Both the position numbers and the translations under genes were made by a program. This document shows, piece by piece, positions 28,590 through 48,282 of a stretch of 64,000 nt of DNA. A model generated the notes under the pieces. It ran no database searches and was not told where the DNA came from. It worked only from the letters and a program-made list of their open reading frames with translations. The stretch comes from Elusimicrobiota bacterium (lineage in GTDB: Bacteria > Elusimicrobiota > Elusimicrobia > UBA1565). The stretch covers positions 1,171 to 65,170 of the forward strand of contig JACRDU010000155.1 of NCBI GenBank assembly GCA_016218495.1, read 5' to 3'. Each line of letters opens with the position of its first letter. Positions within the stretch are counted from its first letter, which is position 1.

Positions 28590-31280
28590 GTGATACTAAG
28601 GAAGGGCGTTGCGGCCCTGCTGGCCTTGCTGCTGGCGGCGCCGCCGGCCTCTGCCCAGCGCATCGCCGCCCCCATCCTCGCCCCCGTCTTGCCGGGCGCC
28701 TCCATAGTCCTTCCGGCGCCGGTGCTGACCACTCCATTGGGCGCGGCTGCGACCCTGCCGACGCTGTCCGCCCCGTCCCTGTCCGCACCCCGAGGGGTCG
28801 TCGGACCGACGGCCGTCGCCGCTCCCGCCGCCGTGGCCGCCCCGGCGCTAGCGCGGGCCGCAGCCCTGCCCGCGCGGGCCGGGCTACAGGCGCTGGGCGA
28901 CGGCCTGGCCCGCGCCCAGGCCTCCGGTCGCTCCGCGGCGCCCGTCCTGGCTCAGGTCTTCGACGCCTCGGCCCCGCGCTCGGGCTCCCCGGCCTCGGCC
29001 GTCGTCGCCGCCTCCATCGGCGGCCGCACCCTGTCCGGCCTCCCGCGCTCGTTGGCCGCGCTCAAGGAGCTGCGCCTGGGCTCCTACAACGTCCTCAACC
29101 TCTTCGAAAAGGTCGGCAAGCACGTGCCGGACCCCGACCATCCCGGGCAAATGAAGCAGGTCTCCGGCCGCACGGCAAAGGAGGAATGGCAGCTGCGCGA
29201 ACAGGCCCGCGCCATCCTGGAGAGCGGACTCGACGTCGTCGCCCTGCAGGAGGTCGAGAACATCGCGGCGCTCGACGACTTCAACGCGCGCTACCTGGGC
29301 GGGGCCTACAAGACCCTGCTCAGCGAGGGCAACGACCCGCGCGGCATCGACGTGGCCTTCCTGGTTAAGCGCGACTTGCCGCTGACGTTGGAGCAGCGCA
29401 GCCACAAGGACGAGGAGTGGGAGGACCCCACCCAGGGCGGCGCGCGCGCCAAGCTCTTCTCGCGCGACCTGACGGCGCTGGTCGTCCGGGCCGAGGGCTC
29501 GGCGCAGCCGCTCTTCATCCTGCTTGGCACGCACATGAAGTCCAAGCGCGACCGCCCCGGCGACCCGGAGTCGGCCGTCCAGCGCCGCGCCCAGGCCCGC
29601 CGCACCGCCGAGGTCGTGCAGCGCTACCGGGCCGAGTTCGGCGCCGACGCCCGCCTGATGCTGGCCGGGGACTTCAACGGCGACCTCAACGCCGAGGACA
29701 CCTTCGCCCCGCTCTGGGAGGCCGGGCTCACCAACAGCCTGGACCTGGGCGAGCGCCCGGTGCCGCTCGAAGAGCGCGTCACCCACACCTACCACCCTAA
29801 GGATGGGCCGCGCCACGCCGCCCAGATGGACGGCATTTTGGTCTCGGACAGCCTGAAGGGCCTGGTCGCCGGCGCTGAGGTCTACCGCTACAAGGACGAG
29901 GGCGGGACGCCCAAGCCCATTCCCCAGACCTACGATGAGCGCAGCCGCAACCCTTCCGACCATTTCCCGCTGGTGATGACGCTGCGGGTCGCCCCGCTGC
30001 TCAAGGCCGCGCCGGCCCCGCCCGCTCCGGCCGTCCCGGCCCCGGCCGGCGAGCGCCGCCTGGCCGCGCTGGGCCTGGCATGGAGCTTCCTCGCCATCGC
30101 GTCGATGTACATCGTCCTGCCGGTGCGCAGCGCCTTCCTGCTCACCCAGTTCGGGCCCTCCGTCATGCCCTGGGTCTTCATGGCCAGCGCCGCCTTCACC
30201 GGCGCCGCGGCCTGGGCCTACGCGCGCTTCGCCGGCCTGCCGCGCGCCAAGCTCATCGGCGGCACCTTGGCCGTGCTGGCCGCCAGCCTGACCGGCTGGT
30301 GGGCCCTGGCCCCGCTGGCGATGGCCTCGGGCCCGCTGTCCTTCGCCTTCTCGATGTGGGCCGATGCCTTCTCCATCATGTCGGTGACCCTGTTCTGGAC
30401 CTACGCGAACGACCGCTTCAAAGGCGAGGCCGCGAAGCGCTGGTTCGGCCCTTTCGCCGCGGCCGGAGCGCTGGGCGGGATGGCCGGTTCGGCCGCCACC
30501 AAGGCGCTCGTGACCACCCTCGGCACGACGCCGCTGCTCCTCATCGGCGCGGCGGTCTTCGCCGCCATCGGCGGCGTCTTCGCCCTGATGGAGCGCCAGA
30601 CGCTGCCGGAGGCCTCCGAGCCGGCCCCCGCCCTCCAGGCGCCGGCCAAGCCGGACTCCAGCCCGTGGGCCGTGGCCAAGGCCGTGCTGGCCTCGCCGTT
30701 CCTGCTCGCGCTGACCGCCGTGGTCTTCTTCGAGCGCCTGGTCCCGGACTTCTCGTACTACCTCTTCTCCGTCAGCGCCCAGGCCGCCTATCCGACCCGT
30801 GAGGCGATGGCGGCCTTCCTGGCCTCCTTCGGCTTCTGGCAGAGCCTGGCCTCCCTCGTCACCAGCGCGGCCCTGACCGGCTGGGTTCTCAAGAAGCTGG
30901 GCGTAGGCAAGACCCTGCTCGGCGCGCCGCTGGCCAACCTGCTGGGCTTCGTCGGCTTCGCCCTGTCGCCGACCTTGGGCGCTGCGGTGGCTGCCAACGG
31001 CGTGGAGGGCTGGCAGCGATACGGCTGGTTCAAGGCCGCCAAGGAGACCACTTACTCGGCGGCCGACAAGGGCCTGCTCTACCAGGTGAAGGCCTACGTC
31101 GAGATGTTCGTCTACCGCTTCGCGCGCGGCGTGGCCGGCCTCATCCTGCTGCTGCTGACCGGCAGCTCGTTTATGGGCTGGAGCCCCTCCGCCGTAGCCT
31201 GGGCGGCCGTCCCGCTGGGTCTGGCCTGGGTCTACGCCGCCTGGAAACTCGGCGCCGAGTACAAGAAGCGCGCCGGTTAG
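28590..31280 (+). CDS. Fusion: signal peptide/Ala-Pro leader + EEP endonuclease/exonuclease/phosphatase + Npt/TLC-like nucleotide translocase (12-TM MFS)
   Basis: EEP motifs SYNVLNLF, ALQEVEN, NDPRGIDVAFL, HMKSK, LAGDFN, MDGILV, PSDHFP. MFS part YIVLPVRSAFL, FWTYANDRF...AKRWFG, RYGWFKAAKE, YQVKAYVEMFVYRFARG. Confidence 0.85.
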   Translation: MILRKGVAALLALLLAAPPASAQRIAAPILAPVLPGASIVLPAPVLTTPLGAAATLPTLSAPSLSAPRGVVGPTAVAAPAAVAAPALARAAALPARAGLQALGDGLARAQASGRSAAPVLAQVFDASAPRSGSPASAVVAASIGGRTLSGLPRSLAALKELRLGSYNVLNLFEKVGKHVPDPDHPGQMKQVSGRTAKEEWQLREQARAILESGLDVVALQEVENIAALDDFNARYLGGAYKTLLSEGNDPRGIDVAFLVKRDLPLTLEQRSHKDEEWEDPTQGGARAKLFSRDLTALVVRAEGSAQPLFILLGTHMKSKRDRPGDPESAVQRRAQARRTAEVVQRYRAEFGADARLMLAGDFNGDLNAEDTFAPLWEAGLTNSLDLGERPVPLEERVTHTYHPKDGPRHAAQMDGILVSDSLKGLVAGAEVYRYKDEGGTPKPIPQTYDERSRNPSDHFPLVMTLRVAPLLKAAPAPPAPAVPAPAGERRLAALGLAWSFLAIASMYIVLPVRSAFLLTQFGPSVMPWVFMASAAFTGAAAWAYARFAGLPRAKLIGGTLAVLAASLTGWWALAPLAMASGPLSFAFSMWADAFSIMSVTLFWTYANDRFKGEAAKRWFGPFAAAGALGGMAGSAATKALVTTLGTTPLLLIGAAVFAAIGGVFALMERQTLPEASEPAPALQAPAKPDSSPWAVAKAVLASPFLLALTAVVFFERLVPDFSYYLFSVSAQAAYPTREAMAAFLASFGFWQSLASLVTSAALTGWVLKKLGVGKTLLGAPLANLLGFVGFALSPTLGAAVAANGVEGWQRYGWFKAAKETTYSAADKGLLYQVKAYVEMFVYRFARGVAGLILLLLTGSSFMGWSPSAVAWAAVPLGLAWVYAAWKLGAEYKKRAG

Positions 31281-32311
31281 AGCCGTTCCCCGGTGTCGGC
31301 GTCGAAGCGGTGCAGCTTCTCGGCGGGGAGCCTGAAGAAGACCTCTTCGCGCGAGCCGGGGAAGGTGCCCGGCCAGCAGGCGCGGAATTTGAAGCCCGAG
31401 GACTCGATGCTCAACACGGTCTGCGCTCCGGTGGGTTCGGCCAGGAGGACCTTGCCGACCAAGAAGCCGTCCTTCAGCTCCAGGGAAAGCTGGACATCCT
31501 CCGGCCTCAGGCCTCCCAGCACCGTCCCGGAGGCTGCGCCGTCCTCGACTGCCCTGGCCTTGTGCGCCTCTTCGAGCGGGAAGACGTTCATCGGCGGCGC
31601 CCCCAGGAAGGTGGCGACGAAGGTATTGGCCGGGTGGTGGTAGATGTCGGCGGGCGTGCCCACCTGCTGGATGCGGCCCTTGTCGAGCACGACGACGCGG
31701 TCGGAGAGGGTCATGGCTTCGATCTGGTCGTGGGTAACATAGACGGCCGTCCCTTTGAGGCGTTTGAAGAGGAGCTTGAGCTCGCCGCGCGTGCGCTCGC
31801 GCAGCACGGCGTCCAGGTTCGAGAGCGGCTCGTCGAGCAAGGTGGCCTTCGGATGGCGCACCAGGGCCCGGCCCAGCGCCACGCGCTGGCGCTGTCCGCC
31901 GGAGAGGGCCGCCGGCTTGCGCTCGAGCAGCTCCTCCAAAGACAGCATCCGGGCCGCCTCCTGGATGCGCTCCTCGATGAGGGCGGGTTCGGCTCCCCGC
32001 AGCTTGAGGCCCATCGCTATGTTCTCGCGCACCAGCAGGTGCGGATACAGCGCGTAGTTCTGGAAGACGAAGGCGATGTCGCGGTCCTTGGGCGGGGTGT
32101 CGGTGACGTCGGCCCCGCCGATGCTGATGGCGCCGGAATCGGCCAGCTCCAGCCCGGCGATGATGCGCAGCAAGGTCGTCTTGCCGCAGCCTGAGGGCCC
32201 CAGCAGGCAGACGAACTCGCCGTCCTTGACGGTGAAGGAGATGTCGTCCAAGACCGGGCGCTTGCCCCCCTTGAACTGCTTGCGGATGTTCTTGACTGCC
32301 ACTTCGGCCAT
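31277..32311 (-). CDS. Sugar ABC transporter ATP-binding protein (MalK-like)
   Basis: GPSGCGKT, FQNYALYPH, LSGGQRQR, LDEPLSNLDA, YVTHDQ. Confidence 0.95.
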   Translation of the reverse strand: MAEVAVKNIRKQFKGGKRPVLDDISFTVKDGEFVCLLGPSGCGKTTLLRIIAGLELADSGAISIGGADVTDTPPKDRDIAFVFQNYALYPHLLVRENIAMGLKLRGAEPALIEERIQEAARMLSLEELLERKPAALSGGQRQRVALGRALVRHPKATLLDEPLSNLDAVLRERTRGELKLLFKRLKGTAVYVTHDQIEAMTLSDRVVVLDKGRIQQVGTPADIYHHPANTFVATFLGAPPMNVFPLEEAHKARAVEDGAASGTVLGGLRPEDVQLSLELKDGFLVGKVLLAEPTGAQTVLSIESSGFKFRACWPGTFPGSREEVFFRLPAEKLHRFDADTGERL

Positions 32312-32315
32312 GGGC

Positions 32316-33146
32316 TTATCCTTTGACGGCTCCCGCCGTAAGACCTTCCACGATGCGCTTCTGGAACGCCAGCACCAATGCGACGACGGGCAGAGTGGTC
32401 AGCACCACCGCCGCCGAAATCTGGTCCCAGGGGACCTCGTACATGGTAACGCCCGAGAGCATGGCGATGCCCACCGGCACCGTACGCGCGGCGTCCTGCG
32501 ACATGAATATGAGGGCCAGCAGGAACTCGTTCCACGAGAAGATGAATACCAGGATGGCCGTCGTCGCCACCGCTGGGGCGGCCAGCGGGAAGACCACCTT
32601 CCAAAGGGTCTGCCAGCGCGAGAGCCCGTCGATGGCCGCGGCCTCCTCCAGGTCGCGCGGTATGGCCTTGAAGAAGGTCATCAGCACCCATATCGAGAAG
32701 GGGAGGTTCAAGGCGGTATAGGGCAAGATGAGCCCCAGCGGGTTGTTGAGCAGGTGCAGCGCCTGCACCAGCTTGTAGAGCGGCACCACCAGGATGGTGG
32801 GCGGGAAGAGGGCCACGAACAAGATGGAGCGCACCGCCCACTCCCCGCCCGGCAGCGGCAGGCGCGAGAACGCGTAGGCCGCCAGGGTACCGACCACGGA
32901 GCACAGCGCCGTCGTGGCCAGCGCGACGACGACGCTGTTGAGGATGTAGGTGCCGAACGGGCGCGTCGAGAAGATTTTCACGTAGCTGGCCAAGGTCGGG
33001 TGGCTGGGCCAGTAGGTCGGCGGGACCTTCACCACCTCCGCCGTGGGTTTCAGGCTGGTGACGACCTGCCACAGGAACGGCCCCAGGCTCCACAGGACCA
33101 CGGCCGCCACGGCGAGGACGAAGAGGGCGTTGCCGAGCCGCTTCAT
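32316..33146 (-). CDS. Carbohydrate ABC transporter permease (MalG-like)
   Basis: EAA loop IPRDLEEAAAIDG, FSWNEF; six TM segments. Confidence 0.94.
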   Translation of the reverse strand: MKRLGNALFVLAVAAVVLWSLGPFLWQVVTSLKPTAEVVKVPPTYWPSHPTLASYVKIFSTRPFGTYILNSVVVALATTALCSVVGTLAAYAFSRLPLPGGEWAVRSILFVALFPPTILVVPLYKLVQALHLLNNPLGLILPYTALNLPFSIWVLMTFFKAIPRDLEEAAAIDGLSRWQTLWKVVFPLAAPAVATTAILVFIFSWNEFLLALIFMSQDAARTVPVGIAMLSGVTMYEVPWDQISAAVVLTTLPVVALVLAFQKRIVEGLTAGAVKG

Positions 33147-34000
33147 GCCTGCTCCTTCTGGCGCGTGAAGTAGAGGATGCCGGCCGACATGACGAGCAGG
33201 CAGGCCGCCATCACCAACGTCAGGGTGCAGGCGTAGCCGAGTTCCAGGTAGCGGAAGACGTTGTCATAGACGTAGAGGGCGATCATGCGCGTCGAGCCGC
33301 CCGGTCCGCCGCCGGTCAGCACCCAGACCAGGTCGAAGACGCCGAAGGACTGGATGGCGCGAAAGACCATCGCCAGCGCCAGCGTGGGCTTGAGCAGGGG
33401 CAGGGTTATCAGGAAGAAACGCCGAACCGGGCCGGCGCCGTCTATGCCGGCGGCTTCATAGAGCTCGTCGGGGATGTTGGCCAACCCGCTCATGAAGAGC
33501 AGGGTCATGAACGGCGTGGTCTTCCAGACGTCGGCCAGCACGCAGGCCGCCATCGCGGAGCCTGGCGAGGCCAGCCAGGCCACGCGCGGGGAGGAGACCA
33601 GCCCGAATTTGAAGAGGAGATCGCCCAGGATGCCGTATTCCGGGTTGTAGATCCACTGCCAGGCCATCGCCATGATGGCGGTGGGCAGCGCCCAGGGCAC
33701 CAGCACGGCCGCGCGCACCAGGCCGCGGCCCTTGAACGGGCGGGTCAGCAGCAAAGCGATGGCCAGCCCCAGCACGGTCTCGATGGAGACGGCATAGGCC
33801 GTGAACCTGACCGTATTCCACAAGGAGGCGAACATCCGCCCGTCGGCGGATAGTCTGTGGAACCCCGACGCGTAGCGGAATGCGGCGACGACGGGGAGCA
33901 GGTTGACCAGCGCCATCAGGAGCAGCGCCGGCACGGCGAAGCTCCAGTTGACGGCGGCTTCCCTAGGGCCGAAGCCGGCGTGAGCCCGGTCGCGGGACAT
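33143..34000 (-). CDS. Carbohydrate ABC transporter permease (MalF-like)
   Basis: DVWKTTPF, IPDELYEAAGIDGA, LTGGGPG; ATG 34000 overlaps the binding-protein stop. Confidence 0.93.
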   Translation of the reverse strand: MSRDRAHAGFGPREAAVNWSFAVPALLLMALVNLLPVVAAFRYASGFHRLSADGRMFASLWNTVRFTAYAVSIETVLGLAIALLLTRPFKGRGLVRAAVLVPWALPTAIMAMAWQWIYNPEYGILGDLLFKFGLVSSPRVAWLASPGSAMAACVLADVWKTTPFMTLLFMSGLANIPDELYEAAGIDGAGPVRRFFLITLPLLKPTLALAMVFRAIQSFGVFDLVWVLTGGGPGGSTRMIALYVYDNVFRYLELGYACTLTLVMAACLLVMSAGILYFTRQKEQA

Positions 34001-35247
34001 CAGCGCGCCATTGCCGGCCGGATCTCGTCGGCGGCGGCCTTCAGGGCGGCCTCGGGCGTCTTCTGGCCCGACAGAGCGGCGCTCAGATGGACCTGCAGGA
34101 TGTCCGAGACCCGCGCCCATTGCGGATGCACGGGCCGCGGCTTGGCGGTCTCGAGCACTTCGCGCAGTTCCTTATAATGGGGGCTCTTGGAGACGATGTC
34201 GGGGTCGTCGAATAGCGCCTTGCGGGTGGGGATGATGCCGCTCTTCATGTAGGCGACCTTCTGGGCCTCGCGGCTGGAGGCGAACTCGATGAAGGTCCAG
34301 GCCGCCTCGGGGTTCTTGGAGAAGCTGGAGATGCCGTAGCCCCAGCCCCCCAGGGTGGCCGCAGGGGAGCGGCCGGAGCCGTGGACCATGGGGCGGATTC
34401 CGACCTTCCCCTTTACGGGAGAGCCGTCCTGCTGGGCCAGGTTCCAGGCATAGGGCCAGTTGCGCATGAAGACGGCGCGCCCCTCCTGGAACATGTGGCG
34501 CGCCTCCTCCTCTTGGAAGGTCAGCACGCCGTCGGGGGAGATCTTGTCCTTGCGCACGGCGTCGACCAGCCAGGTCAGGGCCTCCACGGCGGCGGGGTCG
34601 TCCACATGGACGCCGCCGTGCTCGTCGATGAGGGTCCCGCCGTTGCCCCAGACCAGTTCCAGGAAGTCGCAGACCAGGCCCTCGTACTGCTTGCCCTGGA
34701 AGACGAAGCCCCACACCTCGGGCGGGTTCTGCAGCTTCTTCGCCGCCGCCGCCAGCTCCGCCCAGGTGTTCGGAGGCGCGATGCCGGCCGCCTCGAGCAG
34801 GTCCTTGCGGTAGTAGAGCAGGCCGCCGTCGGACTGGACCGGCACGCGGTAGGTCTTCCCCTCATAGCGCGAACCGGCGATGTCGCCCGGCAGGAACTGC
34901 GCCTGCATCTCCGGCGTGAACTTGTCGTCGAGCGGCCGCAGCCAGCCCTGGTGGGCGAACTTGGGCATCCAGACCACGTCCATATAGACGATGTCGTAGG
35001 TGCTCTCCCCCCCCATGAACGAGGTGGAGTACATGTCCTCGCGCGTGCCGGTCCCCGCCGGGCCTTCCACCATCTCGATGAGGAGCTCCGGATGGAGCTG
35101 GTGGAACTCGGCGATGACCTCCTTGGCGCCCCCACCCACGTCGGGGCCGGCGAGGAAGCGGACCACGGTCTTTCCGGAGGAGGGGGCGTCGGACTTGGCG
35201 CAGGCGGCGAGCAGGAAAGGCAGGAGAACGGCGGGGCGCCACCTCAT
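34000..35247 (-). CDS. Sugar ABC transporter substrate-binding lipoprotein (trehalose/maltose type)
   Basis: Lipobox LAAC; MDVVW, LYYRKDLL, QYEGL, FMRNWPY, ATLGGW, PRP. Confidence 0.92.
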   Translation of the reverse strand: MRWRPAVLLPFLLAACAKSDAPSSGKTVVRFLAGPDVGGGAKEVIAEFHQLHPELLIEMVEGPAGTGTREDMYSTSFMGGESTYDIVYMDVVWMPKFAHQGWLRPLDDKFTPEMQAQFLPGDIAGSRYEGKTYRVPVQSDGGLLYYRKDLLEAAGIAPPNTWAELAAAAKKLQNPPEVWGFVFQGKQYEGLVCDFLELVWGNGGTLIDEHGGVHVDDPAAVEALTWLVDAVRKDKISPDGVLTFQEEEARHMFQEGRAVFMRNWPYAWNLAQQDGSPVKGKVGIRPMVHGSGRSPAATLGGWGYGISSFSKNPEAAWTFIEFASSREAQKVAYMKSGIIPTRKALFDDPDIVSKSPHYKELREVLETAKPRPVHPQWARVSDILQVHLSAALSGQKTPEAALKAAADEIRPAMAR

Positions 35248-35266
35248 GGGGCGATTGTACTACAGG

Positions 35267-38200
35267 TCAGCGGCCGAAGAGGCCGTAGTCCGTCATGACG
35301 CGCAGCACCTCGGCCACGCTCCAGGCCTGAGAGCGGGTGCCGCCGCGGTTCTGCGCGCGCGCCGCGCGGGCCATCGCCGGGCCGAGGCCGGCCCGGTCCT
35401 CGAGGGAGAACTCCCTGAACAGCGCCTCGGAGGACCCGCCGTCGAAGACTTCGGGCAGAGAGCCCTCCGTGGAGGCGGCCAGGAACTCGGCCAGCGGGGT
35501 CAGCACGCCGCGCAGCTCGGCGCTGATTCGCTCGGAGGACCAGCCCTGGGCGCGGCGCACCTTGACCAGGGCATCGAGGTAGGGGCCCATCAGCCAGGGC
35601 CAGACCGTGCCCTGGTGGTAGGCCTGGTCCTTCTCCAGCGGGGGCTTCGCGGTATCGTAACGCCCCTGGTAGCGCGGGTCGCGGTAGGAGAGGGTGCGCA
35701 TCCCGTAGGGCGTCAGCAGGTCGCGCGTGGCGGCCAGCACGACGGCCGCCTGCCGCTCGGGGCTCAGGAGGTCGAGGCCGTGGCTGACGGCCACGAGCAT
35801 GTTCGGGCGCACCGCTTCGCCGTGCGGGTCGCCCTCGACCACGTCGCGCAGCGCTCCGCCCGTACCGCCCCAGGCCCGCCGGTTCTCCTCGTTGGCGAAC
35901 CAGAACTTCTTGTTGAAGGACTGTTTGACCCGCTCGGCCCGGGCGTCGGCCTCGGAGGCGGCCGCGGCGTCCCCGGCCTCGCGCTCCAGCTCGGCGAGGT
36001 AGCGCAGATTCGCGTACCAGAGGGCGTTGATCTCCACCGCCTTGCCGTGGCGCGGGGTCACCGGGCGGTCGCGGCCTTCGGGGTCGGCGTCCATCCAGGT
36101 GGACTGGGCGGGGCTGACGATGAGCCCATCGGAGTCCATGTAGATGCGGTTATAGCGGCCGTAGCGCTGGTAGCCGGTGCCCTCGGCGTAGGCGCGCATC
36201 ACCTTGCGCAGCACCGGCAGCATCTCGGCGGCGAAGGCCGGGTCGCCGGCCTTCTTGACCGCCTGGACGAACCACATCGAGCCGTCCACGGTGTTGTATT
36301 CCGCCGCCGCCCCGCCTCCCGGCAGGCGGTTCGGGATGAGGCCGTCAGCCTCGTGGCGCGCGAAGCCGCGGATGTTCTCGCGCGCCTCGCCGCGGCGCCC
36401 GGTGGAGAGCAGGAGGCCGGGCAGGGAGATGAAGGTGTCGCGGCCCCACTCCTCGAGGAACCAGTCCAGGCTGGCCGCCCAGATCTGGACCCCGCCGCCG
36501 GCGTGCTTCACGAACGAATCCCCCGCCTTGAGGAAGGCGCCCTTCAGCGCGGCCCCCGCGCTCCAGACCTTGCCCGCCAGCACGGCCATCCAGGCCCCCA
36601 GTTGGGCGCGCACGTCCCAGCGCGCACGGCTGCCGTAGTCCGGGTCGGAGGGCAGCGGGATGCGCCAGCGCCAATGCGAGGTGCCGCCCGCCATCTCCTT
36701 GACCGGGAACGGGTCGCCCCATTCGTCGCCCAAGGTGTAGCCGGTGAAGCGCGCGTTGCGCCCCGAACCGGGCTTGCGGCTCTCGGCCAGGAAGCGCCCG
36801 ATGAAGCCGTCGGAGCGCGGGTCGTCGTGGCTGGAGACCTTCTTCCAGTCCCCGTACACCGTCACGAAACCGAAGCGCTCGGCCGCCTCGGCCTTCCCCT
36901 CGAAGGCCTCGGCCAGCGGGAAGGCGCCGCGCTCTGAGAACACCTGCGCCAGGGCCTTCACATAGTCGTCGCCCGGCTCGTCGCCCGACACCATCTGCCC
37001 GTTGCCGAAGTCGTAGGCGAAGTGCAGCGCGTCCACGCGCGCCCCGTCGAAGCCCAGGTCCAGCCAGTGGCGATAGGGCGCCAGCATCGCCGCGTAGCCC
37101 TCGGATTTCGCGCGCCCCCAGTTCCACAGGCCCAGGTCCTTCCAGTCCTCGTTTATCCACTGGTTCTTGATGCCGGGGTTTCGGGTGCGCAGGTCGGTGA
37201 AGACCTCGGGGCGCTTCCAGGCATCCACCGAGTCCTTGCCGCGGAACATCGGTATGTCGAAGAGCACGCGGCCGCCGACGTCGTGGACGGTCGCCAGGGC
37301 CTCCTGGAGCTGGCCATAGGCCAGCCACTGCGCGAACTCGTGCGTCTCCACCGTCTCGCTGAAATCGGCCCGCCCCCGTGCCCCGGCCAGGTCAGCCGGC
37401 GTCCACTGCAGCACCGGCTTGCCCACGGCCTTCGACAGCGCCATGAACTCGGCGTACTCGCCCAGCCAAGCCGCGCTCTCCGCCTTGAAGTCCTCGAAGG
37501 CCCGGCCGCGCTGGGAAGTCCGGTCGAAGGCGCGGTAGGCCGCGCGGGCGACCTCCGCCTCCCGCGCGCGCAAGGCCTCGTAGTCCACGGCCTGCTTCTG
37601 GGACAGGGTCTTGGCCTCGAGCTTGGCGGCCAGCGCCGGGTCGGCCTTCACCTCCGGCACGACCGCCCAGTCCAGGTGGTCCTCGTTGACGGCGAAGAGG
37701 CTGACGGGGGCGTAGGGGCTCTCCCCGCGTACGGCGAAGTGCGGCAGCAGATGGACGACCTTAGCGCCCTGCTTGGCCAGCACGTCGCGGTAGTAGGCGG
37801 CGAAATCGGTGAACTTGCCCACCCCGGGGTCGCCTTTCTCGCGCCGCAGCGAGTAGAGCGGCACGGTGACGCCGGCGTGGGCGGCGGCCGGGTCGCGCCA
37901 CCAGGCGGAGCGGGCCAGGCCCGTGCGCGACAGCCCGCCGGAGCGGCCGTCCACGACGCCGGAGCGCCCGGAGACCTGGCGCCCGCCGTCGAACAGGGCT
38001 CTGAGCGCCGGGGCCGGCGCTTTGGCTACGGCCGGCGCGGCCTCCTTGAGCGAGGCCAGCGGCGTCTCGGCCCGCCCCTGCGCCGGCGCCGACGGGCCGG
38101 CGACGGCCTTGGGGGCGGCGACGGCTGAGGCGGCCGCGGCCCGCGCCGAAGCGGCGGCGGGCACGGCGACGGCAGGGAGGGCGGAAACCGCGACGGTCGG

Positions 38201-38404
38201 GGCGGCCAGCGCCGCGCCGGGCGAAAGGGTCAGCGTCGGCTTGGGCCGGGAGACCGGCGCCAAGCCTCCGACGGAGACAGGCGCGACGGGGACGGTGACG
38301 GGGGCGGAGACGACCTGCGCGAGGACGGGAGAGACGGGCTGGAGGAGCAGGCACAGCGACAGGAGGGCCGCGCCGATTCGGCCCAACAGGATTTCTCGCC
38401 TCAC
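35267..38404 (-). CDS. Fusion: signal peptide/Ala-Pro leader + GH77 4-alpha-glucanotransferase-like + amylo-alpha-1,6-glucosidase (glycogen debranching C-terminal domain)
   Basis: GH77-like GVTVPLYSLR, GVGKF, SPYAPVSLFA, FDIP, RVDALH; GDE-like WGRDTFISLPGL, GLIPN, YNTVDGSMWF, TWMDA, TPRHGKAVEINALWY, RPN, YHQGTVWPWL, QAWSVAE. Confidence 0.88.
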   Translation of the reverse strand: MRREILLGRIGAALLSLCLLLQPVSPVLAQVVSAPVTVPVAPVSVGGLAPVSRPKPTLTLSPGAALAAPTVAVSALPAVAVPAAASARAAAASAVAAPKAVAGPSAPAQGRAETPLASLKEAAPAVAKAPAPALRALFDGGRQVSGRSGVVDGRSGGLSRTGLARSAWWRDPAAAHAGVTVPLYSLRREKGDPGVGKFTDFAAYYRDVLAKQGAKVVHLLPHFAVRGESPYAPVSLFAVNEDHLDWAVVPEVKADPALAAKLEAKTLSQKQAVDYEALRAREAEVARAAYRAFDRTSQRGRAFEDFKAESAAWLGEYAEFMALSKAVGKPVLQWTPADLAGARGRADFSETVETHEFAQWLAYGQLQEALATVHDVGGRVLFDIPMFRGKDSVDAWKRPEVFTDLRTRNPGIKNQWINEDWKDLGLWNWGRAKSEGYAAMLAPYRHWLDLGFDGARVDALHFAYDFGNGQMVSGDEPGDDYVKALAQVFSERGAFPLAEAFEGKAEAAERFGFVTVYGDWKKVSSHDDPRSDGFIGRFLAESRKPGSGRNARFTGYTLGDEWGDPFPVKEMAGGTSHWRWRIPLPSDPDYGSRARWDVRAQLGAWMAVLAGKVWSAGAALKGAFLKAGDSFVKHAGGGVQIWAASLDWFLEEWGRDTFISLPGLLLSTGRRGEARENIRGFARHEADGLIPNRLPGGGAAAEYNTVDGSMWFVQAVKKAGDPAFAAEMLPVLRKVMRAYAEGTGYQRYGRYNRIYMDSDGLIVSPAQSTWMDADPEGRDRPVTPRHGKAVEINALWYANLRYLAELEREAGDAAAASEADARAERVKQSFNKKFWFANEENRRAWGGTGGALRDVVEGDPHGEAVRPNMLVAVSHGLDLLSPERQAAVVLAATRDLLTPYGMRTLSYRDPRYQGRYDTAKPPLEKDQAYHQGTVWPWLMGPYLDALVKVRRAQGWSSERISAELRGVLTPLAEFLAASTEGSLPEVFDGGSSEALFREFSLEDRAGLGPAMARAARAQNRGGTRSQAWSVAEVLRVMTDYGLFGR

Positions 38405-38439
38405 GCCCAGAGTGTAACGACCGGCCTATAAGGAAGCTT

Positions 38440-40881: not shown

Positions 40882-41253
40882 ATGCAGCTGACACTCGACG
40901 GGAAGCGGATCTCCTCTGACGCCAGGCCGGAGGACGCGCGCGGCGTGCTGGAGAGGCTGCAGCGCGCGCGGCGCGGGGAGCTCGAACTCAAGGACGGGGC
41001 GCGGACCATGAGCCTCCAGCTCGCAGCCGGCGTCTGGTTCCTCGAGGCCGGCGAGGGCTCCACCCTGCGCTATGGGATGCTGGTGACGCCGCTGCAGGCC
41101 GTCGGAGCGCTCAACGCCTTCCTCAAAGGAGGCCTGCCGATGCCGGACGGCTGGGGCGCGGGGGCGGCCGCCGCCGAGGGGTTCGAATCGGTCGTCGTCG
41201 GAGACGCCGCCCACCCCGACTGCCCGCTGTGCCGTATGATGGGCGTTCAGTGA
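40882..41253 (+). CDS. Hypothetical protein with C-terminal HPDCPLC motif
   Basis: GGAGG RBS; 123 aa; CxxC near the C-terminus. Confidence 0.6.
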   Translation: MQLTLDGKRISSDARPEDARGVLERLQRARRGELELKDGARTMSLQLAAGVWFLEAGEGSTLRYGMLVTPLQAVGALNAFLKGGLPMPDGWGAGAAAAEGFESVVVGDAAHPDCPLCRMMGVQ

Positions 41254-42290: not shown

Positions 42291-44669
42291 CTATAGCTCC
42301 AGGAGGACATGGTCGTAGATCCGCGGGATCTTCGTCCCCGCGCCCTCCAGCGTGTAAAAGCTCCACTCTTCCTTCTTGGCCGCCACCGCGCGCAGCTCCC
42401 CGAGGTAGCCGTCCCAGGTCGACACGAAGGCGCGCGTGCCGGAAAAATCCGCCACCGAGGCGAAATAGGAGGCCGAGAAGGTGAACTCCACCATGTTCTT
42501 GTCCTTGTCGGCGCGGGCGGCGATGTCCCCGACCAACGGCTTGCCGTAGGATTCCGGCCCCGAATCGGCCGCCCCGAAGGAGCGCATGTCCCAGCCGTAG
42601 AGCAGGAAGCCGGCGTTGAACTCGAAGTCGGAGCGGGCGTAGCCGAGCTTCGGGAAGAAGCGCTTGCCCGGGACGCCCGGGAAATCGAAGTAGACCGAGA
42701 AATAGACGTGGTCGAAGCCATGCGGCGGATTCCATTCGTCCGTCACATCGGTCATCTTGAAGCGCAGCTTCAGGTCCCGTCCCGAGGTCAGCGCGTCCAC
42801 GCGTTCCATCGAGAGCTGGCCGCGATAGCTGGGGTCAGCCGGAGGGCGCACGGTGCCGTCGAGGCCGCCCTTCTGGGCCTGCGGGACCTTGGAACGCACC
42901 AGCAGCTTGTAAGGGTTCTTCACCGTCAGCGTCACCGGCGCCGACAGCGCCAGCCCGGCCTTGCTCTTGGCCAGCAGGGTCAGGTCGTGGCGGCCGTTGC
43001 CCAGGCGCGTCGTGTCGAGCTCCACGCAGCCCGCGGAAGGGTCGGACAGCGGCACGCGCCGCCCATAGTCGCCGTTGTCGAGGAGGACGAGCTCGCAGGC
43101 CCGGTCCTCGAGCCTGTAGTCCAGCGGGACGGTGCCCTTGACCAGGCGCCTGGCCGGGGCGACCAAGGCCAGGCCGTGCGCGTCCGCCGGGACAAAGGCG
43201 CCCTCCAGCACGAGGAATTCGCCCGGCTCGAGCAGGAAGACCCCGGGGACGTCCTTGCGCCCGTGGGAGGACAGCGCCACGGACAGGCCCTCCCCCCCCA
43301 GGTCGCAGGCCACGGGGTTGGGCGCGGTGTTGAAGACGGACACCAGGCGGACGTCCTTGTGCGTGCTCGACCAGGCCAGGAGGCCGGGGCCGTGGCTGGT
43401 GCGCTCGACGGCCAGCTTGCCGCGGGTCAGCGCGGGGTGGGCCTTGCGGAAAACGACCAGGGAGCGGATGAAGACGGCCAGCGGGCTCTCCAGGTCGAAG
43501 GCTTCGTCCCGGAACATGTCCTCGCGGGCGCGGGTCAGGGCGGCCTCGGTGCCGTAGTAGACGCAGGGCAGGCCGGGCAGGGTGAAGAGGGCGGCCAGCG
43601 ACTGCTTTACCGTGGGCAGGTCGGCCCGAGCGCACATGCGCTCGATGTCGTGGTTGTCGAGGAAGTTGACCCACAGCGGCCGGTTCGCGCGCGGGGCCTT
43701 GAGGACCTTGCGCAGGCGTTCGGTGGGCGCCTTGCGGAAGAAGACCTGGGTCAGCGCCTCGTTGAGCGGCAGGTCCACCGCCCCGTCGAGGCGCGGCCGG
43801 CCCGGCCCCTTAATGTAGTCGTTGATGGCCTTCGTGTCGTATGACCAGACCTCGCCGAAGACGAAGAAGTCGCGCTTGCCCTTCTTGGCGGCGTGCGGCT
43901 TCACTCCGTCGGCGTCGTACAGGAAGCGCTCGTAGAACTCCTCGGGGGTGTAGTAGACCGTGTCGACCCGGAATCCGTCGATGCCGGCCTCGTCCATCCA
44001 GAACTTGTAGACCTCCTTGAAGCGCTGCACGGCCAGGGGGCTCTTCAAATTGATGTCGTCGAGGTCCCCCATCGACCAGGTCAGGGTCTGCTCGCGCGAC
44101 TTGAAGTCGGAGATGTTCGGCGTGAAGTTGTAGACGGCCGCGCGCTTGTGCTCGGGGTTGTTGGGGTCGTTGAGCGAGAACACCGGGTCCTTGGGCGCCA
44201 TCAGCGCCCCGTCGGCCAGCTTCCAGTTGAGCTCCGGGCGGGCCGGGTCGAAGCCCTGGCCCTCCACGGTGAAGAAGTTGCCCGTGTGGTTGACCACGAT
44301 GTCCTGGATGACCTTGAGCCCCAGAGCGTGGGCCCGCGCGACGAACGTCTTGTAGTCCGCCAGCGTGCCGAAGTGGGGGTCCACAGCCGTGAAGTCGTAG
44401 GCCCAGTAGCCGTGGAAGCCCCGGGTCTTGATGTAGGGATTGACCCACTGGTTGTGCACCGGCGGGGTGATCCACACCGCGTCGTAGCCCATCCCCTTTA
44501 TGAAAGGGAGGCGTTCGGTCAGGCCCTTGAGGTCCCCGCCGTGGAAGGCGTCGTCATCGTCCGGGTCGTACTCGCCCTTGCCGAAGTCGTCGTTGGAGCG
44601 GTCGCCGTTGGCGAAGCGGTCGATGAGGACCAGATAGACGACCTTGTCGCGCCAAGCGTCGGGCTTCAC
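42291..44669 (-). CDS. GH13 alpha-amylase family (no signal peptide) with C-terminal DOMON/CBM-like domain
   Basis: DRFANGD, GGDLKG, HGYW, DIVVNH, DGFRVDT, FGEVW, FLDNHD, YYGTE; C-terminal WNPPHGFDHV...STWD. Confidence 0.92.
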   Translation of the reverse strand: MKPDAWRDKVVYLVLIDRFANGDRSNDDFGKGEYDPDDDDAFHGGDLKGLTERLPFIKGMGYDAVWITPPVHNQWVNPYIKTRGFHGYWAYDFTAVDPHFGTLADYKTFVARAHALGLKVIQDIVVNHTGNFFTVEGQGFDPARPELNWKLADGALMAPKDPVFSLNDPNNPEHKRAAVYNFTPNISDFKSREQTLTWSMGDLDDINLKSPLAVQRFKEVYKFWMDEAGIDGFRVDTVYYTPEEFYERFLYDADGVKPHAAKKGKRDFFVFGEVWSYDTKAINDYIKGPGRPRLDGAVDLPLNEALTQVFFRKAPTERLRKVLKAPRANRPLWVNFLDNHDIERMCARADLPTVKQSLAALFTLPGLPCVYYGTEAALTRAREDMFRDEAFDLESPLAVFIRSLVVFRKAHPALTRGKLAVERTSHGPGLLAWSSTHKDVRLVSVFNTAPNPVACDLGGEGLSVALSSHGRKDVPGVFLLEPGEFLVLEGAFVPADAHGLALVAPARRLVKGTVPLDYRLEDRACELVLLDNGDYGRRVPLSDPSAGCVELDTTRLGNGRHDLTLLAKSKAGLALSAPVTLTVKNPYKLLVRSKVPQAQKGGLDGTVRPPADPSYRGQLSMERVDALTSGRDLKLRFKMTDVTDEWNPPHGFDHVYFSVYFDFPGVPGKRFFPKLGYARSDFEFNAGFLLYGWDMRSFGAADSGPESYGKPLVGDIAARADKDKNMVEFTFSASYFASVADFSGTRAFVSTWDGYLGELRAVAAKKEEWSFYTLEGAGTKIPRIYDHVLLEL

Positions 44670-46684
44670 TTACGGACCAGCACGCGTACGCCGCGGGCGG
44701 GGACCCGCACCGTGACCTTGGAGCCGCCCTCGGCGCCGGGATGGGTGGCGACGCCGTAGCCGGCGTCGAGCGCGTCGGACAGCGCGGTGCCGGCCGGGGT
44801 CAGGCCGTTGTCGACGAACATCTCCGCCTCGCGGGCCTCGTCGGCCGTGTTCATCACGACGACGACCTCTTGCCCCTGGTAGATGCGGCTGAAGGCGTAG
44901 ATGCCGGAGTTGTATGGGTCGGACCAGCGTACATGCTGCTCTCCGCGGCGCAGCGCCGGCAGGTCCCGGCGCACCTTCATCAACTGCTGGAGCAGCTTGA
45001 AGCTGGCCGCGCCGGTATCGAACTTGTCGCCCTTGGAGCTCTCGGTCTTGTACTGCCCCTCGGCGAACATGTCCTCGCGGTTCTGAGGGTCGGCCGGGCG
45101 GTCTCCGCCCTCGGGGGTCAGGCGTCCTTCGAGCTGGCGGAAGGCCTGCTCGGCGCCGTAGTAGACTAGGGGGATGCCGGTGGAGAAGAGCAGGAAGGCG
45201 AAGGCGGCCTTGAGCACGCCGTCGGACTCGCCGTCGCGCAGGAAACGGTAGGTGTCGTGGTTGTCGATGAAGCGGATGATGCGCCCGAGGGCCGCGCCGA
45301 GCGCGTCGCGGGCCCGCACGAAGCTCTCCTCGAGCTGGCGGGTCGGGGCCTTGCCGTGCAGCGCGAACTGCTGGCGCCGGAACTCCGGGTAGTTGTAGCC
45401 GGAGTCCGTGCCCAGCCCCAGGTCGCCGACGATGTCGGAGTCGACCCCGGTGGAGTTCTCGCCCAGGACCAGGAAGTTCTTCTTGCCCAGGCCCCCCGCG
45501 TACTCCTTGACCTCCCGGGAGAAGCGCCGCACGAAGTCGGGGTCCATGTGGCGGATGGCGTCGAGCCGCATCCCGTCCACGTCGGTCTCCTTCAGCCACC
45601 ACTGCGTGACCTTGATGAGCTTCGAGCGCGTCGCGTCGCGCTCGGTGTCCCAGTGCCGGTAGTTGGGCGGGAAATCGCCGTGCGTGGCTTGGTCGTGGTT
45701 GTTCCAATCGTCGATGACGCCGCGCCGGGTGAAGTCCTCGCCGGTCATGTCCTCGGGGCCGAGCAGCTCGGTCCACTCCCCGATCTCCTTGCGGCCCGCG
45801 CCCTGGTACTTGGAGCCGTCCTTGTACTCGAAGACCGGTCCGGTGTGGTTGGCCACCACGTCCAGGATGACCTTGATGCCGCGCGCGTGGGCCTCGCGAA
45901 CCATCTCCTTGTAGTCATCCATCGTGCCCAGATGCGGGTCCACGGCCAGGAGCTGGGTCGGCGCGTAGCCGTGGTAGGCCTCCGGGATGCCCATCGTCAC
46001 CGGCGAGAGGATGATGGCGCTGACGCCCAGGGTCTTGAGGTAGTCGAGCCGCGCGGTCACGCCCTTGATGTCGCCGCCGTGGCGCGAAACCCCGCTCTTG
46101 GGGTCGCCCAGAGGGATGGCGCGCTTGGAGCGCGAGAAGCGGTCGGTCATCACCGAGTAGACGACCTCGTCGCGCCAGTCCTCGGGAGAGGCGAAGTACT
46201 TGCGCCCGGACTCCGGGGTCAGGCTCAGCTCGGCGACGGTGCGCGGGGTGCCGGCCGGCGGCTCCAGCCGGCGCATGGCCTCCGGGGTCGGGGTGGTCCG
46301 GGCCTGGACGGCGGAGAGCTGCTGGGTGGGGCCGAGGTCGGGGACGGCCTTGGCCTTCCCCTCGGCCGCCGCGCGCCCCTGCTCCTCCTTCGCCGCGACG
46401 GCCTTGGCCGGGGTCGGAGCGGCCAGAGCGGCCTGGGCCGCCTGCGCCTGCGCCCGCGCCCGCGGCTGGACGGCGGGCGTCGGCAAGGCGAGGCTGGGAG
46501 CGCCGAGGCTGGGCGCCGCCAGGGACGGGGCGGACAAGGTCGGCCCCAGCGACGGCTTGACCAGGCCCGCGCCGACAGGGCCGACGGCGGGGGCGGCCTC
46601 GACGACGGGCGCGACGGTCTTGACCTGGGCCGCCGAGGGCGACGCCAGCGCGAGAGAGAGGAGGATGGATAGAAGCCGCGTCAT
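44666..46684 (-). CDS. GH13 alpha-amylase family with signal peptide/Ala-Pro leader
   Basis: True start ATG 46684 (ATGA overlap), MTRLLSILLSLALASPSAAQ; SPEDWRDEVVY, GGDIKG, YHGY, DVVANH, DGMRLDA, LGE, FIDNHD. Confidence 0.92.
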   Translation of the reverse strand: MTRLLSILLSLALASPSAAQVKTVAPVVEAAPAVGPVGAGLVKPSLGPTLSAPSLAAPSLGAPSLALPTPAVQPRARAQAQAAQAALAAPTPAKAVAAKEEQGRAAAEGKAKAVPDLGPTQQLSAVQARTTPTPEAMRRLEPPAGTPRTVAELSLTPESGRKYFASPEDWRDEVVYSVMTDRFSRSKRAIPLGDPKSGVSRHGGDIKGVTARLDYLKTLGVSAIILSPVTMGIPEAYHGYAPTQLLAVDPHLGTMDDYKEMVREAHARGIKVILDVVANHTGPVFEYKDGSKYQGAGRKEIGEWTELLGPEDMTGEDFTRRGVIDDWNNHDQATHGDFPPNYRHWDTERDATRSKLIKVTQWWLKETDVDGMRLDAIRHMDPDFVRRFSREVKEYAGGLGKKNFLVLGENSTGVDSDIVGDLGLGTDSGYNYPEFRRQQFALHGKAPTRQLEESFVRARDALGAALGRIIRFIDNHDTYRFLRDGESDGVLKAAFAFLLFSTGIPLVYYGAEQAFRQLEGRLTPEGGDRPADPQNREDMFAEGQYKTESSKGDKFDTGAASFKLLQQLMKVRRDLPALRRGEQHVRWSDPYNSGIYAFSRIYQGQEVVVVMNTADEAREAEMFVDNGLTPAGTALSDALDAGYGVATHPGAEGGSKVTVRVPARGVRVLVRK

Positions 46685-48282
46685 TTCTTCTTCCGGATCC
46701 CGAAGATGCCCAGCACCGCGTCCAGCGCCTGCCGCAGGGCCGACGGCCGCGGCGCGGCGTCCGTCATCGAATACACCGACTTGAAATCGCCCGTCTCGGC
46801 CACGGCGGCGTCGACGGCCACGGCGATGGGCCGGGCCTTCGCGCGCTGTCCGAGTATATACAACGAAATGTCCACGCTCTGCTGGATGACGAAGAGGGTC
46901 CAGAACACCGTCATCGAGCCCGAGGCGAAGAAGGTCCCGGCCAGCAGGAAGAAGAGGTCGCGGCCCTGCTGGATGTAGGAGCGGGTGCGCCGCGAGATGC
47001 GGCCCTTGTCGTAGAGGCCGTTCACCCCGGCGTAGCCGAGCGTGCCGAAGAAGGTTCCCAACACGGTGGCGATGCCCATGTCGCGCCAATAGGCCAGCGC
47101 CCAGGGCGGGACCGTGCCGGCGATGACGGCGTAGGAGATCAGCCGGAAGAGCGCCGAGGTCGACTGCATGTAGATGAAGTTGAAGACGGTCTGGTAGCCC
47201 AGCCCGCGCTGGCGGCTGATGAGGTTCTGGAAGTTCTGCCAGGTGTTGATCCAGACCCCGTGGAAGGCCTGCAGGGCCAGCGAGAAGCCCAGCGCCGCGG
47301 CGAAGGCGACCGGGTGGAGGGGCAGGAAGAGCTTCGCCCACCACATCGCCGAGAGGACGAAGGCCGGGCCCTTGGAGAGTACGCCGCCCCAGAACTCGGC
47401 CTGGGTCGGCTTCGTATACGCGGCCTTGAAGGTGCGGGCCAGGAACGCGGCCTCGCGGAAGGGGGCGGTGAGGAAGCGCAGGAAGCGGTTGCTGGGGGCC
47501 GACTTCATGTCCCCGGCCTTAGACTCCTGCTTGGCCGCCGTCAGCGCGATGCGCTCGATGGCCACCGGCGCGGTGATTCCGGCCTCGGCCAGGGCCTCCT
47601 TGACGGCCTCGGCGCCGGCTTCGGACAGGGCGCCTCCCGCCACGATGCGTACCTGGCCCGAGGCGTTCAAAGCCTTCGCGTAAGCCGGGTCGGCGGCGAG
47701 GCGGGCCCGCAGAGAAGGGAGGGTGACCGCGGCGGGCTCGGACCCGTGCTGGGTCAGGAATACCTTGACCGTCGAGCCGTCGAAGGCCTGGTTGAGGGCG
47801 GCGGTCTGAGCGGCGCCCCTCATCGCCCGGCCCAGCACCTGCAGCCGGGAGGCCGCCGTCGCCGGGGCCGCGGACTCGGGAGAATCCATGGCGCGGGCGG
47901 CCGCCGCGATGGCGGCGGCGGCCGCCTTCGGAGCGGCCAGGGCCGCGGGCAGGGCCGACGGCGCAGAAATATTAGCCGCCGCCGCGAGAGGAATCGCGGC
48001 GGCGGCAGGGACGGCCTGACCGGGGACCGTGGTGTGGACCGTGGGCAAGGCCAAAGATGGGGCGACGGACAGGCTGGGGGCGCTCAGCGGCGCGTTCAGG
48101 CTGACGCTTTGGGGCAGGACCGTGGGCGCCGCGACGGCGGGGGTGCCCGGCGCGCCGGCCTTGACCGGGGCGGTGCGCAGCTGCGCCCAGGCCTCGGAAA
48201 CAAGAAGTCCCTGCTCGTTGAGCAGGGACATGGTCAGGAGGGCCGCCGCGAGCTTGCGTCCGCGGTTTCCGAGGAGTTTCAC
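46681..48282 (-). CDS. Signal peptide/Ala-Pro leader + polytopic membrane domain of unknown family
   Basis: Leader ...SEAWAQ...LSAPSL...LNQAFDG; C-terminal hydrophobic helices. Start GTG 48282 or 48291. Confidence 0.78.
   Translation of the reverse strand: MKLLGNRGRKLAAALLTMSLLNEQGLLVSEAWAQLRTAPVKAGAPGTPAVAAPTVLPQSVSLNAPLSAPSLSVAPSLALPTVHTTVPGQAVPAAAAIPLAAAANISAPSALPAALAAPKAAAAAIAAAARAMDSPESAAPATAASRLQVLGRAMRGAAQTAALNQAFDGSTVKVFLTQHGSEPAAVTLPSLRARLAADPAYAKALNASGQVRIVAGGALSEAGAEAVKEALAEAGITAPVAIERIALTAAKQESKAGDMKSAPSNRFLRFLTAPFREAAFLARTFKAAYTKPTQAEFWGGVLSKGPAFVLSAMWWAKLFLPLHPVAFAAALGFSLALQAFHGVWINTWQNFQNLISRQRGLGYQTVFNFIYMQSTSALFRLISYAVIAGTVPPWALAYWRDMGIATVLGTFFGTLGYAGVNGLYDKGRISRRTRSYIQQGRDLFFLLAGTFFASGSMTVFWTLFVIQQSVDISLYILGQRAKARPIAVAVDAAVAETGDFKSVYSMTDAAPRPSALRQALDAVLGIFGIRKKK

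Follow-up and report, generated by a model that had tools for sequence, protein, structure and literature searches.

Proteins that need to stay unfolded across an oxidising periplasm, such as outer-membrane proteins and autotransporter passengers, avoid cysteine (Cys). The substrates of type V secretion (TpsA proteins and autotransporters) cross the periplasm unfolded and are notably Cys-poor; in these, a Sec signal is followed by an N-proximal element that is read after export, and the cargo is diverse and often very large. Colicins and pyocins have a disordered N-terminal domain with short linear motifs that are read by envelope proteins, the toxin being threaded across membranes, and their cargos are interchangeable enzymes with few cysteines. 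In the present study, we analysed a stretch of 64,000 nucleotides (the window; C131:1171-65170, contig JACRDU010000155.1 of assembly GCA_016218495.1; 70% GC) from the genome of an uncultured Elusimicrobiota bacterium of groundwater (4.15 Mb; 95.4% complete), in which unrelated proteins begin with the same leader module. The module begins with a Sec signal peptide; next come ~80 Pro/Ala/Val residues without charge, in which P-x-L (LSAPSL) is repeated, and then a partly helical, Ala-rich spacer that bears a motif of the F-D-G type. The reading to which we give about an even chance is that this leader is no passive linker but a lineage-specific module for the export and sorting of a sub-proteome that would cross the periplasm unfolded.

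The leader resembles the type V elements in that a Sec signal is followed by an N-proximal stretch ahead of diverse cargo. However, the TPS domain of TpsA is a folded beta-helix of ~250 residues, whereas the leader is predicted to be disordered, and autotransporters need a C-terminal beta-barrel. Among the 54 leader proteins scanned with Pfam (the other two of the 56 found in the genome are short contig-end fragments), there was no such barrel domain and no TPS (Haemagg_act) match (TpsB (ShlB) was not searched for), and no shared C-terminal signal was found, the C-termini of all 56 being unrelated. Unlike in type V secretion, polytopic alpha-helical transporters and ATPases are among the cargo. 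Colicins, which lack a Sec signal peptide, are taken up by a target cell; the leader proteins have a Sec signal, no recognisable Tol or Ton box, and at least 56 cargos per genome, transporters among them. Double-glycine (PCAT) leaders are 15-30 residues long and have no Sec signal; the envelope of the present leaders in our hidden Markov model (HMM) has a median of 246 residues (range, 111-400, including the signal peptide) and begins with one. The sequence FDGG occurs only in a minority of leaders, and the C39 peptidase was not searched for. TonB and TolA have an uncleaved transmembrane (TM) anchor and a charged Pro-rich rod, whereas the leaders have an A-x-A|Q site (the vertical bar denotes the cleavage site) and an uncharged Pro-rich part; no TonB_C match was obtained among the 54 scanned proteins, and the cargos are unrelated. 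A disordered stretch after the signal sequence is reported to sort outer-membrane lipoproteins (bioRxiv 10.1101/2021.01.05.425367). Lipoproteins bear the Cys of a lipobox at +1 and are Lol substrates, whereas the leaders have Gln at this position and no Cys, exceed the lipoprotein linkers five- to tenfold in length, and have conserved motifs. Gln at +1 of most signal peptidase I substrates is reported as a rule specific to Bacteroidetes (PMC5837995), in which a further signal sorts a subset of the exported proteins (PMC5837995; PMC10653852). Gln at +1 was also read in most of the leaders, which would likewise sort a subset; the type IX secretion system uses a folded C-terminal domain, and none is common to the leader proteins.

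Open reading frames (ORFs) were called from their extent and GC3 with our own procedure (no gene finder), and starts were picked by inspection or according to simple rules; a simple scale served to predict TM segments, and domains were assigned with Pfam and NCBIfam. The four leader proteins of the preliminary description of this DNA were located where it had put them, with the architecture that it gave. The pentapeptide SAPSL was found in 37 six-frame ORFs of the genome, in nine of which it lies in a high-GC3 frame directly after a signal peptide. An HMM seeded with 10 leaders and iterated over all six-frame ORFs of the genome (E<1e-3) collected 25, 43, 52, and finally 56 ORFs, with no match to reversed ORFs in any round. 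Thus the genome-wide motif scan that had been proposed yields at least 56 leader-bearing ORFs, a number that is a floor since further Cys-free ORFs resemble more members or contig-end fragments. No Pfam or NCBIfam model covers the leader.

The consensus of an alignment of 46 leaders (A1) shows near-invariant P(-4), A(-1), and Q(+1), followed by L..P.L..P.L, an Ala-rich part, and L...FDG. F[DE]G was present in 46% of 50 leaders, compared with 5.3% of random 150-residue windows of the proteome and 4.5% of shuffled leaders, i.e., ~10-fold enrichment over shuffles; P-x-L occurs 2.52 times per 110 residues in leaders, 1.25 times in shuffles, and 0.59 times in the background. The motifs that had been noticed in the preliminary description are therefore more frequent than in shuffled or unrelated sequence (2-fold over shuffles for P-x-L). 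The MFS subfamily has the variant F-D-R-L-I-G (F-A/D-R-L-I-G in the second weak helix of the model below). In the first 80 mature residues, K+R amount to 5% and D+E to 1-3%; this early region has a net charge of +1 and nearly no acidic residues, whereas plain exported proteins of this genome begin acidic. In an AlphaFold model of a leader-MFS protein (L043; alignment of 10 orthologues and one paralogue), pLDDT was below 50 over residues 1-111 and 149-196, so that the leader is predicted to be disordered. That the Ala-rich part is a hidden TM segment was ruled out by its hydrophobicity and by this model.

All leaders open with a start codon and a full signal peptide (a positive n-region, an h-region of 10-15 residues, which is shorter than a TM helix needs, a helix breaker, and small residues at -3 and -1). 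As read from its sequence, the signal is of the canonical Sec/signal peptidase I type, like those of the outer-membrane proteins of this genome. The n-regions hold K/R but no twin-arginine consensus, and no lipobox was found, the leaders having Gln at +1 and no Cys in the mature part. The end A|Q had been regarded as a hallmark of the leader, but it is not one: Gln is at +1 in 50 of the 56 leaders, in many other plain signal peptides, and in all six leaderless precursors of secretins (on C44, C3, and C155) and Omp85 proteins (on C44, C57, and C158), which end in [AGS]|Q; the ends can be near-identical (..AFPAPSAA|QF in a leader, ..AFPAPTFA|QF in the secretin/Omp85 set). Secretins, Omp85, and the lipoprotein solute-binding protein of the operon in the window have a signal peptide but no leader, and thus the leader marks a subset of Sec substrates. 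The glutaminyl cyclase PF05096 was not found in the 95.4%-complete genome (the M28-type cyclase was not searched for). Note that our rule-based signal-peptide predictor was too permissive (978 of 2,262 ORFs) and was used for no count; the plain-signal-peptide controls below were hand-picked from its list of Q(+1) proteins. About one third of the leader signal peptides have a long c-region with an (S/A)-P-G-x-G turn 8-12 residues before A-x-A|Q; these (L012, L022, L032, L033, L040, L042, L050, and L053) are mostly on large or membrane cargos.

The statement that the leaders sit on unrelated cargoes was borne out by the diversity of Pfam families in the 54 scanned proteins, 29 of which have a family and 25 none. 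Among the hydrolases are GH13, GH77 with GDE, PLD (twice), Endonuclease I, EEP, RNB, S8, S41 with PDZ, M28, M48, M50, and trypsin with PDZ. The nucleotide-dependent cargos include a complete SecA, LonB-like AAA with Lon_C, ClpB-like AAA, a two-half ABC exporter, ATP-grasp, a PRK/uridine-kinase-like domain, PPK2, GlgA, and GNAT, and the carriers include at least five MFS-type proteins. The leader-GlgA keeps KTGGL and the leader-SecA appears intact. No TM segment is predicted between leader and domain in SecA, GlgA, PPK2, the LonB-like protein, RNB, GH77-GDE, and two ClpB-like fragments. Leaderless paralogues with 27-47% identity were found in the same genome for SecA, GlgA, PPK2, MalQ, RNB, GH13, and ClpB. 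The housekeeping SecA is on C134; the leader-SecA was considered as the core of a secretion route and rejected, since it was not found in either congener and its distribution is patchy. It is present in one relative (G003; found in a search with a stricter first look), and in three further genomes of the family, long ORFs give a second and more divergent match to SecA. Two relatives of the ATP/ADP-translocase family TLC, which matched none of 14 control genomes, are present: a leaderless one with six Cys (C128:2073-3413) and the weakly matching, Cys-free C-terminal domain of P0001. No conserved gene neighbours were found for the leader genes. A secretion island beside them was likewise rejected, the genes being scattered over ~45 contigs; two of them are 10-20 kb away from secretins, and no pattern emerged.

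In the cargo parts, 11 of 36,275 residues are Cys (0.030%), compared with 0.956% in the other coding ORFs, a ~32-fold depletion. At most one Cys was found in 95.7% of 47 cargos and in 16% of 1,275 background ORFs (Mann-Whitney p=2e-25). Cys is the only deviating residue, every other amino acid being within 0.3 log2 units, and the rare Cys of the leader regions lie within or ahead of the signal peptide. The leaderless paralogues have a usual Cys content (four in SecA, seven in GlgA, four in MalQ, five in RNB, and five in GH13), and one Cys follows the leader in the leader-SecA (residue 750 of a 1,100-residue stretch). Eighteen plain-signal-peptide proteins contain 0.54% Cys, so that avoidance in the cargos is ~18-fold stronger; five outer-membrane proteins/secretins contain none. 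Avoidance reaches TM helices and nucleotide-binding domains, and among multi-TM proteins, all 13 leader-bearing ones have at most one Cys, compared with 8% of 142 leaderless ones. The same was seen in relatives: 35 GH77-GDE orthologue ORFs have 22 Cys among 50,589 residues, cargos of other kinds (eleven loci) have 4 among 3,673 residues, and MFS orthologues have at most two past the signal-peptide region. Because DsbB and eight DsbA-like matches are present in the genome, the avoidance is not due to missing disulfide chemistry; VKOR was not found in the genome search. One 916-aa ORF (C45:1433-3865) consists of four tandem DsbA-like (Thioredoxin_4) domains. By analogy with outer-membrane proteins and autotransporter passengers, we infer that the leader class may cross the oxidising periplasm unfolded.

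The leader was searched for in relatives with A1. In the order, 30 of 41 genomes gave a match (E<=1e-5; at most 69 candidates per genome scored); by family, 16 of 16 in f1, 10 of 18 in f2, and 3 of 6 in f3, and the congeners have at least 41 and at least 39 matches. When 201 genomes sampled from the phylum were scanned, only members of this order gave matches, and none of the 188 genomes outside it did (E<=1e-8; at most 14 candidates per genome). The counts in relatives are floors, and the model is bound to composition, so that a leader not found in a relative is not the same as a leader absent. F-D-G is kept in GH77-GDE orthologues (FFDGG, LFDGQ, WFDGA, and LFAGA; 58-74% identity of the cargo) while the rest of the leader has diverged, and the motif is also kept across MFS orthologues. 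More than 30 loci (20 of 25 genomes) have the leader and the MFS domain joined in the same frame, with 30-60% identity, and leader-GlgA and leader-RNB recur in proteins deposited by other groups. Lower-GC relatives of P0002, the GH77-GDE protein of the window, have S/T/N/Q-rich N-terminal linkers instead of the leader. In many Elusimicrobiota, GH77-GDE is the C-terminal part of an ORF of ~1,700-1,930 aa (L086-L115), whose upstream part has an S8 subtilase-like domain and, internally, a short hydrophobic stretch; the N-termini of these ORFs lie beyond the flanks examined. The nearest public proteins and loci come from metagenome-assembled genomes of Elusimicrobia/Elusimicrobiota (groundwater, soil, and lakes), including one complete genome; public breadth is under-sampled because word-indexed protein searches reached few relatives (three and five matches). 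No description of this leader or of a Cys-free sub-proteome in Elusimicrobiota was found in the literature, supplementary annotations being outside the scope of that search.

In the export-and-sorting reading, Sec would take the leader N-terminus across the inner membrane, the charge-free disordered tract would act as an export-initiation or threading segment that holds the cargo unfolded in the periplasm oxidised by DsbA/DsbB, and the F-D-G motif would be read by a second step, which would withdraw the proteins from the general pool of the periplasm and insert them into the outer membrane, pass them across it, or take them further. This reading accounts for most of the evidence. The preliminary description had proposed an undescribed delivery route, for example into a prey or host cell, instead of a linker. 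A route of some kind is favoured by the ~10-fold motif enrichment, the cytoplasmic-type cargos with leaderless paralogues, and the ~32-fold Cys depletion; delivery into prey or host through a second step found no such footing, no machinery, destination, prey, or host having been identified.

The following results weigh against an export-and-sorting role. About half of the leaders are without F[DE]G, and leader composition follows genomic GC, as weakly constrained disorder would. The searches of SecY/YidC, C-termini, and neighbour genes identified no second-step machinery, and a second translocon for a second membrane is not supported, the genome having one SecY and one YidC. The leader enzymes of the window are ATP-independent hydrolases and form part of an ordinary alpha-glucan utilisation operon (GH77-GDE, solute-binding protein, two permeases, and ATPase). 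A further conflict comes from the membrane cargos. Every leader protein with TM segments has a net-positive flank before the first TM (..GERR| in P0001). L043 is a canonical MFS protein, with motif A (GGLLDRKAPAK) after TM2, K/R-rich even loops, and a K-rich C-tail; MFS_1 matches were obtained for L043, L010, and the C-terminal domain of P0001. The AlphaFold model shows, after the disordered leader, two weak helices (the second with the motif) and then exactly 12 helices (202-613) with no extra TM, and Foldseek matched the MFS model to ferroportin, NupG, SPNS2, and GlpT with a probability of 1.00. The ABC exporter also has no extra TM ahead of its first membrane domain. The premises of the preliminary description, that the N-terminus of 12-TM carriers faces the cytoplasm and that GH77/GDE enzymes are normally cytoplasmic, agree with these data (manual topology, the 12 modelled helices, and the fold match for the former; the leaderless MalQ paralogue for the latter). 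The MFS cargos are thus probably N-in, with the sidedness taken from the family rule. An N-in MFS domain with a positive junction would place the C-end of the leader on the normally cytoplasmic side, which conflicts with simple export, although the N-end bears an ordinary export signal. Weakened TM segments, as might be expected of exported membrane proteins, were looked for and rejected (hydrophobicity equal to background, p=0.84); since the segments are as hydrophobic as those of ordinary inner-membrane proteins, they should arrest in the inner membrane.

Several of these points would be explained if the leader were a passive disordered spacer, i.e., a periplasmic tether on ordinary periplasmic and inner-membrane proteins that spread by duplication of a 5' cassette, perhaps O-glycosylated at A-P-S-L, with the motifs as inherited remnants and the paralogues of cytoplasmic enzymes in ATP-independent periplasmic roles. 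We regard this as somewhat unlikely. The predicted disorder, the variable length, and the composition that follows GC agree with it, as do the plain glucan-utilisation operon and the many nucleotide-free hydrolase cargos (GH13, GH77-GDE, PLD, S8, S41, M28, and Endonuclease I). Envelope proteins are reported to bear disordered N-terminal linkers commonly (bioRxiv 10.1101/2021.01.05.425367; PMC12041528), which is in favour of a spacer as well. However, a spacer does not account for a motif 10-fold over shuffles that is kept across orthologues, for SecA, GlgA (KTGGL), PPK2, and LonB-/ClpB-like ATPases following the leader with no TM between, or for Cys avoidance ~18-fold beyond that of the 18 plain-signal-peptide proteins, TM helices and nucleotide-binding domains included; moreover, the cytoplasmic face of an N-in MFS protein is not a place where a linker in the periplasm could end.

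The topology would be satisfied if the signal-like helix were neither translocated nor cleaved and served as a membrane anchor on the cytoplasmic face, with all cargo working inside the cell: the leader leads straight into TM1 of N-in MFS proteins and ABC exporters through a K/R-rich junction, the early mature region is net +1 with almost no acidic residues, and SecA, GlgA, PPK2, RNase II, Lon/ClpB-like, and ATP-grasp cargos are in place there. We consider such an anchor quite improbable, because the signal peptides are indistinguishable from those of secretins and Omp85, with positive n-regions and h-regions too short for a TM helix, and because it gives no reason for a 32-fold loss of Cys while the leaderless paralogues keep theirs. 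Endonuclease I, which is normally held outside the cytoplasm, is also among the cargo. Finally, although ORFs at 70% GC often extend upstream of true starts, our starts were chosen by eye or simple rules, and the model was built from low-complexity sequence, an artefact (mis-assembly, or high-GC DNA ahead of the true starts that reads as Ala/Pro-rich protein) is scarcely credible, as reversed ORFs of equal composition gave no match, each leader has a start codon and a full signal peptide, the in-frame architecture recurs, with 30-60% identity, at over 30 MFS loci of 20 genomes and also in the GlgA and RNB entries of others, and the cargo Cys loss is an independent property that tracks leader presence.

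A bolder reading, which we put forward as an unlikely one, is that the order keeps a second, Cys-free copy of 'cytoplasmic' machinery that is sent to a nucleotide-containing space outside its own cytoplasm. The exported set would comprise SecA, ClpB-/Lon-like ATPases, RNase II, glycogen synthase, debranching enzymes, PPK2, a uridine-kinase-like enzyme, and ABC, MFS, and TLC-like transporters, and the space would be either a metabolically active periplasm supplied with ATP, as a bacterial analogue of Ignicoccus, or a prey or host cell (its cytoplasm and membrane); at the destination, the transporters would insert from the side of the leader. This would jointly account for the ATP- or ADP-glucose-dependent cargo, the transporter topology, and the Cys avoidance in TM helices and nucleotide-binding domains. 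Chlamydia exports glycogen enzymes into its inclusion, and Ignicoccus is an archaeon with an energised intermembrane compartment. Both offer a possible analogy, with enzymes of glycogen metabolism or ATP-using enzymes outside the cytoplasm of the producer in a nucleotide-supplied compartment; Chlamydia exports the products of the same gene copies by type III secretion, whereas here there are separate Cys-free paralogues with a Sec signal and leader.

The features of the window are listed in Table 1, together with the leader-SecA, which is encoded elsewhere in the genome. The solute-binding protein of the operon to which P0002 belongs has a lipobox and no leader (N-terminus MRWRPAVLLPFLLAAC). 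For the leader and cargo of P0003, no usable match was found in the ESM Atlas. The start codon of the amylase overlaps the stop codon of P0003 at 46681-46684 (ATGA-type), which suggests translational coupling of two leader genes in one operon. P0005, which begins at 26036 and had been suggested as a possible fifth member, has a plain signal peptide and no match to the leader model; this protein and its 586-aa neighbour can be used as local leaderless controls. No Tad locus was found among 35 window ORFs scanned. At 17446-20932 (-) of the window lies an MtrB/PioB-type outer-membrane porin (841 aa, E=2e-102), and the adjoining multihaem cytochrome has paired CXXCH motifs, the two suggesting a porin-cytochrome module for extracellular electron transfer.

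Table 1. Leader-bearing proteins of the window, their parts and neighbours, and the leader-SecA (positions refer to the window unless a contig is given)
Feature	Position	Strand	Description
P0005	24906-26036	-	Plain signal peptide; weak GH75 chitosanase-like match just under cut-off
586-aa protein	26142-27899	+	Plain signal peptide, no leader
P0001	28590-31280	+	Signal peptide, leader, EEP nuclease-like domain, MFS/TLC-like membrane domain
P0001 signal peptide	28590..28655	+	VILRKGVAALLALLLAAPPASA|Q; ends PPASA|QR; n-h-c layout, A-x-A|Q site
P0001 leader	28656..29078	+	Uncharged P/A/V tract; leader HMM E=1.6e-20
P0001 leader motif APSL	28770-28781	+	Residue 61
P0001 leader motif VFDAS	28959-28967	+	Residue 124
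P0001 endonuclease/exonuclease/phosphatase domain	29079..29714	+	PF03372/PF19580; ExeM/NucH-like E=1.7e-12
P0001 MFS/TLC-like membrane domain	30084..31277	+	TLC 23.9 bits, MFS_1 23.4 bits
Operon downstream of P0002	31280..35247	-	Lipoprotein solute-binding protein, two permeases, ABC ATPase
P0002	38404-35267	-	Signal peptide, leader, GH77, GDE_C
P0002 signal peptide	38318..38404	-	..LLLQPVSPVLA|Q; carries sole Cys of protein
P0002 leader	37865..38317	-	LRALFDGG; best match to alignment A1, E=5.5e-32
P0002 leader motif FDG	37985-37993	-	LFDGG at residue 138
P0002 cargo	35432..37864	-	Pfam/NCBIfam; no Cys
P0002 GH77	37031-37864	-	4-alpha-glucanotransferase
P0002 GDE_C	35432-36520	-	Amylo-1,6-glucosidase
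GH13 paralogue, leaderless	42294..44669	-	No signal peptide, 5 Cys; internal control
GH13 amylase	46684-44666	-	True start MTRLL; ends PSAA|QV
Amylase signal peptide	46628..46684	-	MTRLLSILLSLALASPSAA|Q
Amylase leader	46154..46627	-	Three APSL repeats (46490-46531), without FDG
GH13 alpha-amylase cargo	44666..46153	-	No Cys
P0003	48291-46681	-	Signal peptide, leader, cargo without family match
P0003 signal peptide	48184..48291	-	..LLVSEAWA|Q, next L
P0003 leader	47764..48183	-	Two APSL repeats (48052-48081); AFDGS at residue 170, FDG 47776-47784
P0003 cargo	46681..47763	-	C-terminal TM segments, no Cys, no Pfam/NCBIfam family
Leader-SecA (L047)	C33:118762-122061		DEAD, preprotein-binding, P-loop, wing/scaffold domains

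Should the leader serve as a sorting signal, it would represent a new bacterial targeting code, consisting of a disordered, charge-free N-terminal tract and a short motif, and its substrates, with polytopic membrane proteins and ATPases among them, would form a new class; we know of no two-step secretion route that handles both. It is a textbook assumption that nothing nucleotide-dependent works outside the bacterial cytoplasm, and the ~56 marked proteins per genome make this assumption testable, with natural Cys-free substrates for accessibility mapping. Even under the more mundane reading as a spacer, this would be the largest known family of motif-bearing disordered leaders, and these Elusimicrobiota would add a second phylum that appears to follow the Q-rule. 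The leader is a first concrete handle on the lifestyle of the uncultured high-GC Elusimicrobiota of groundwater and soil.

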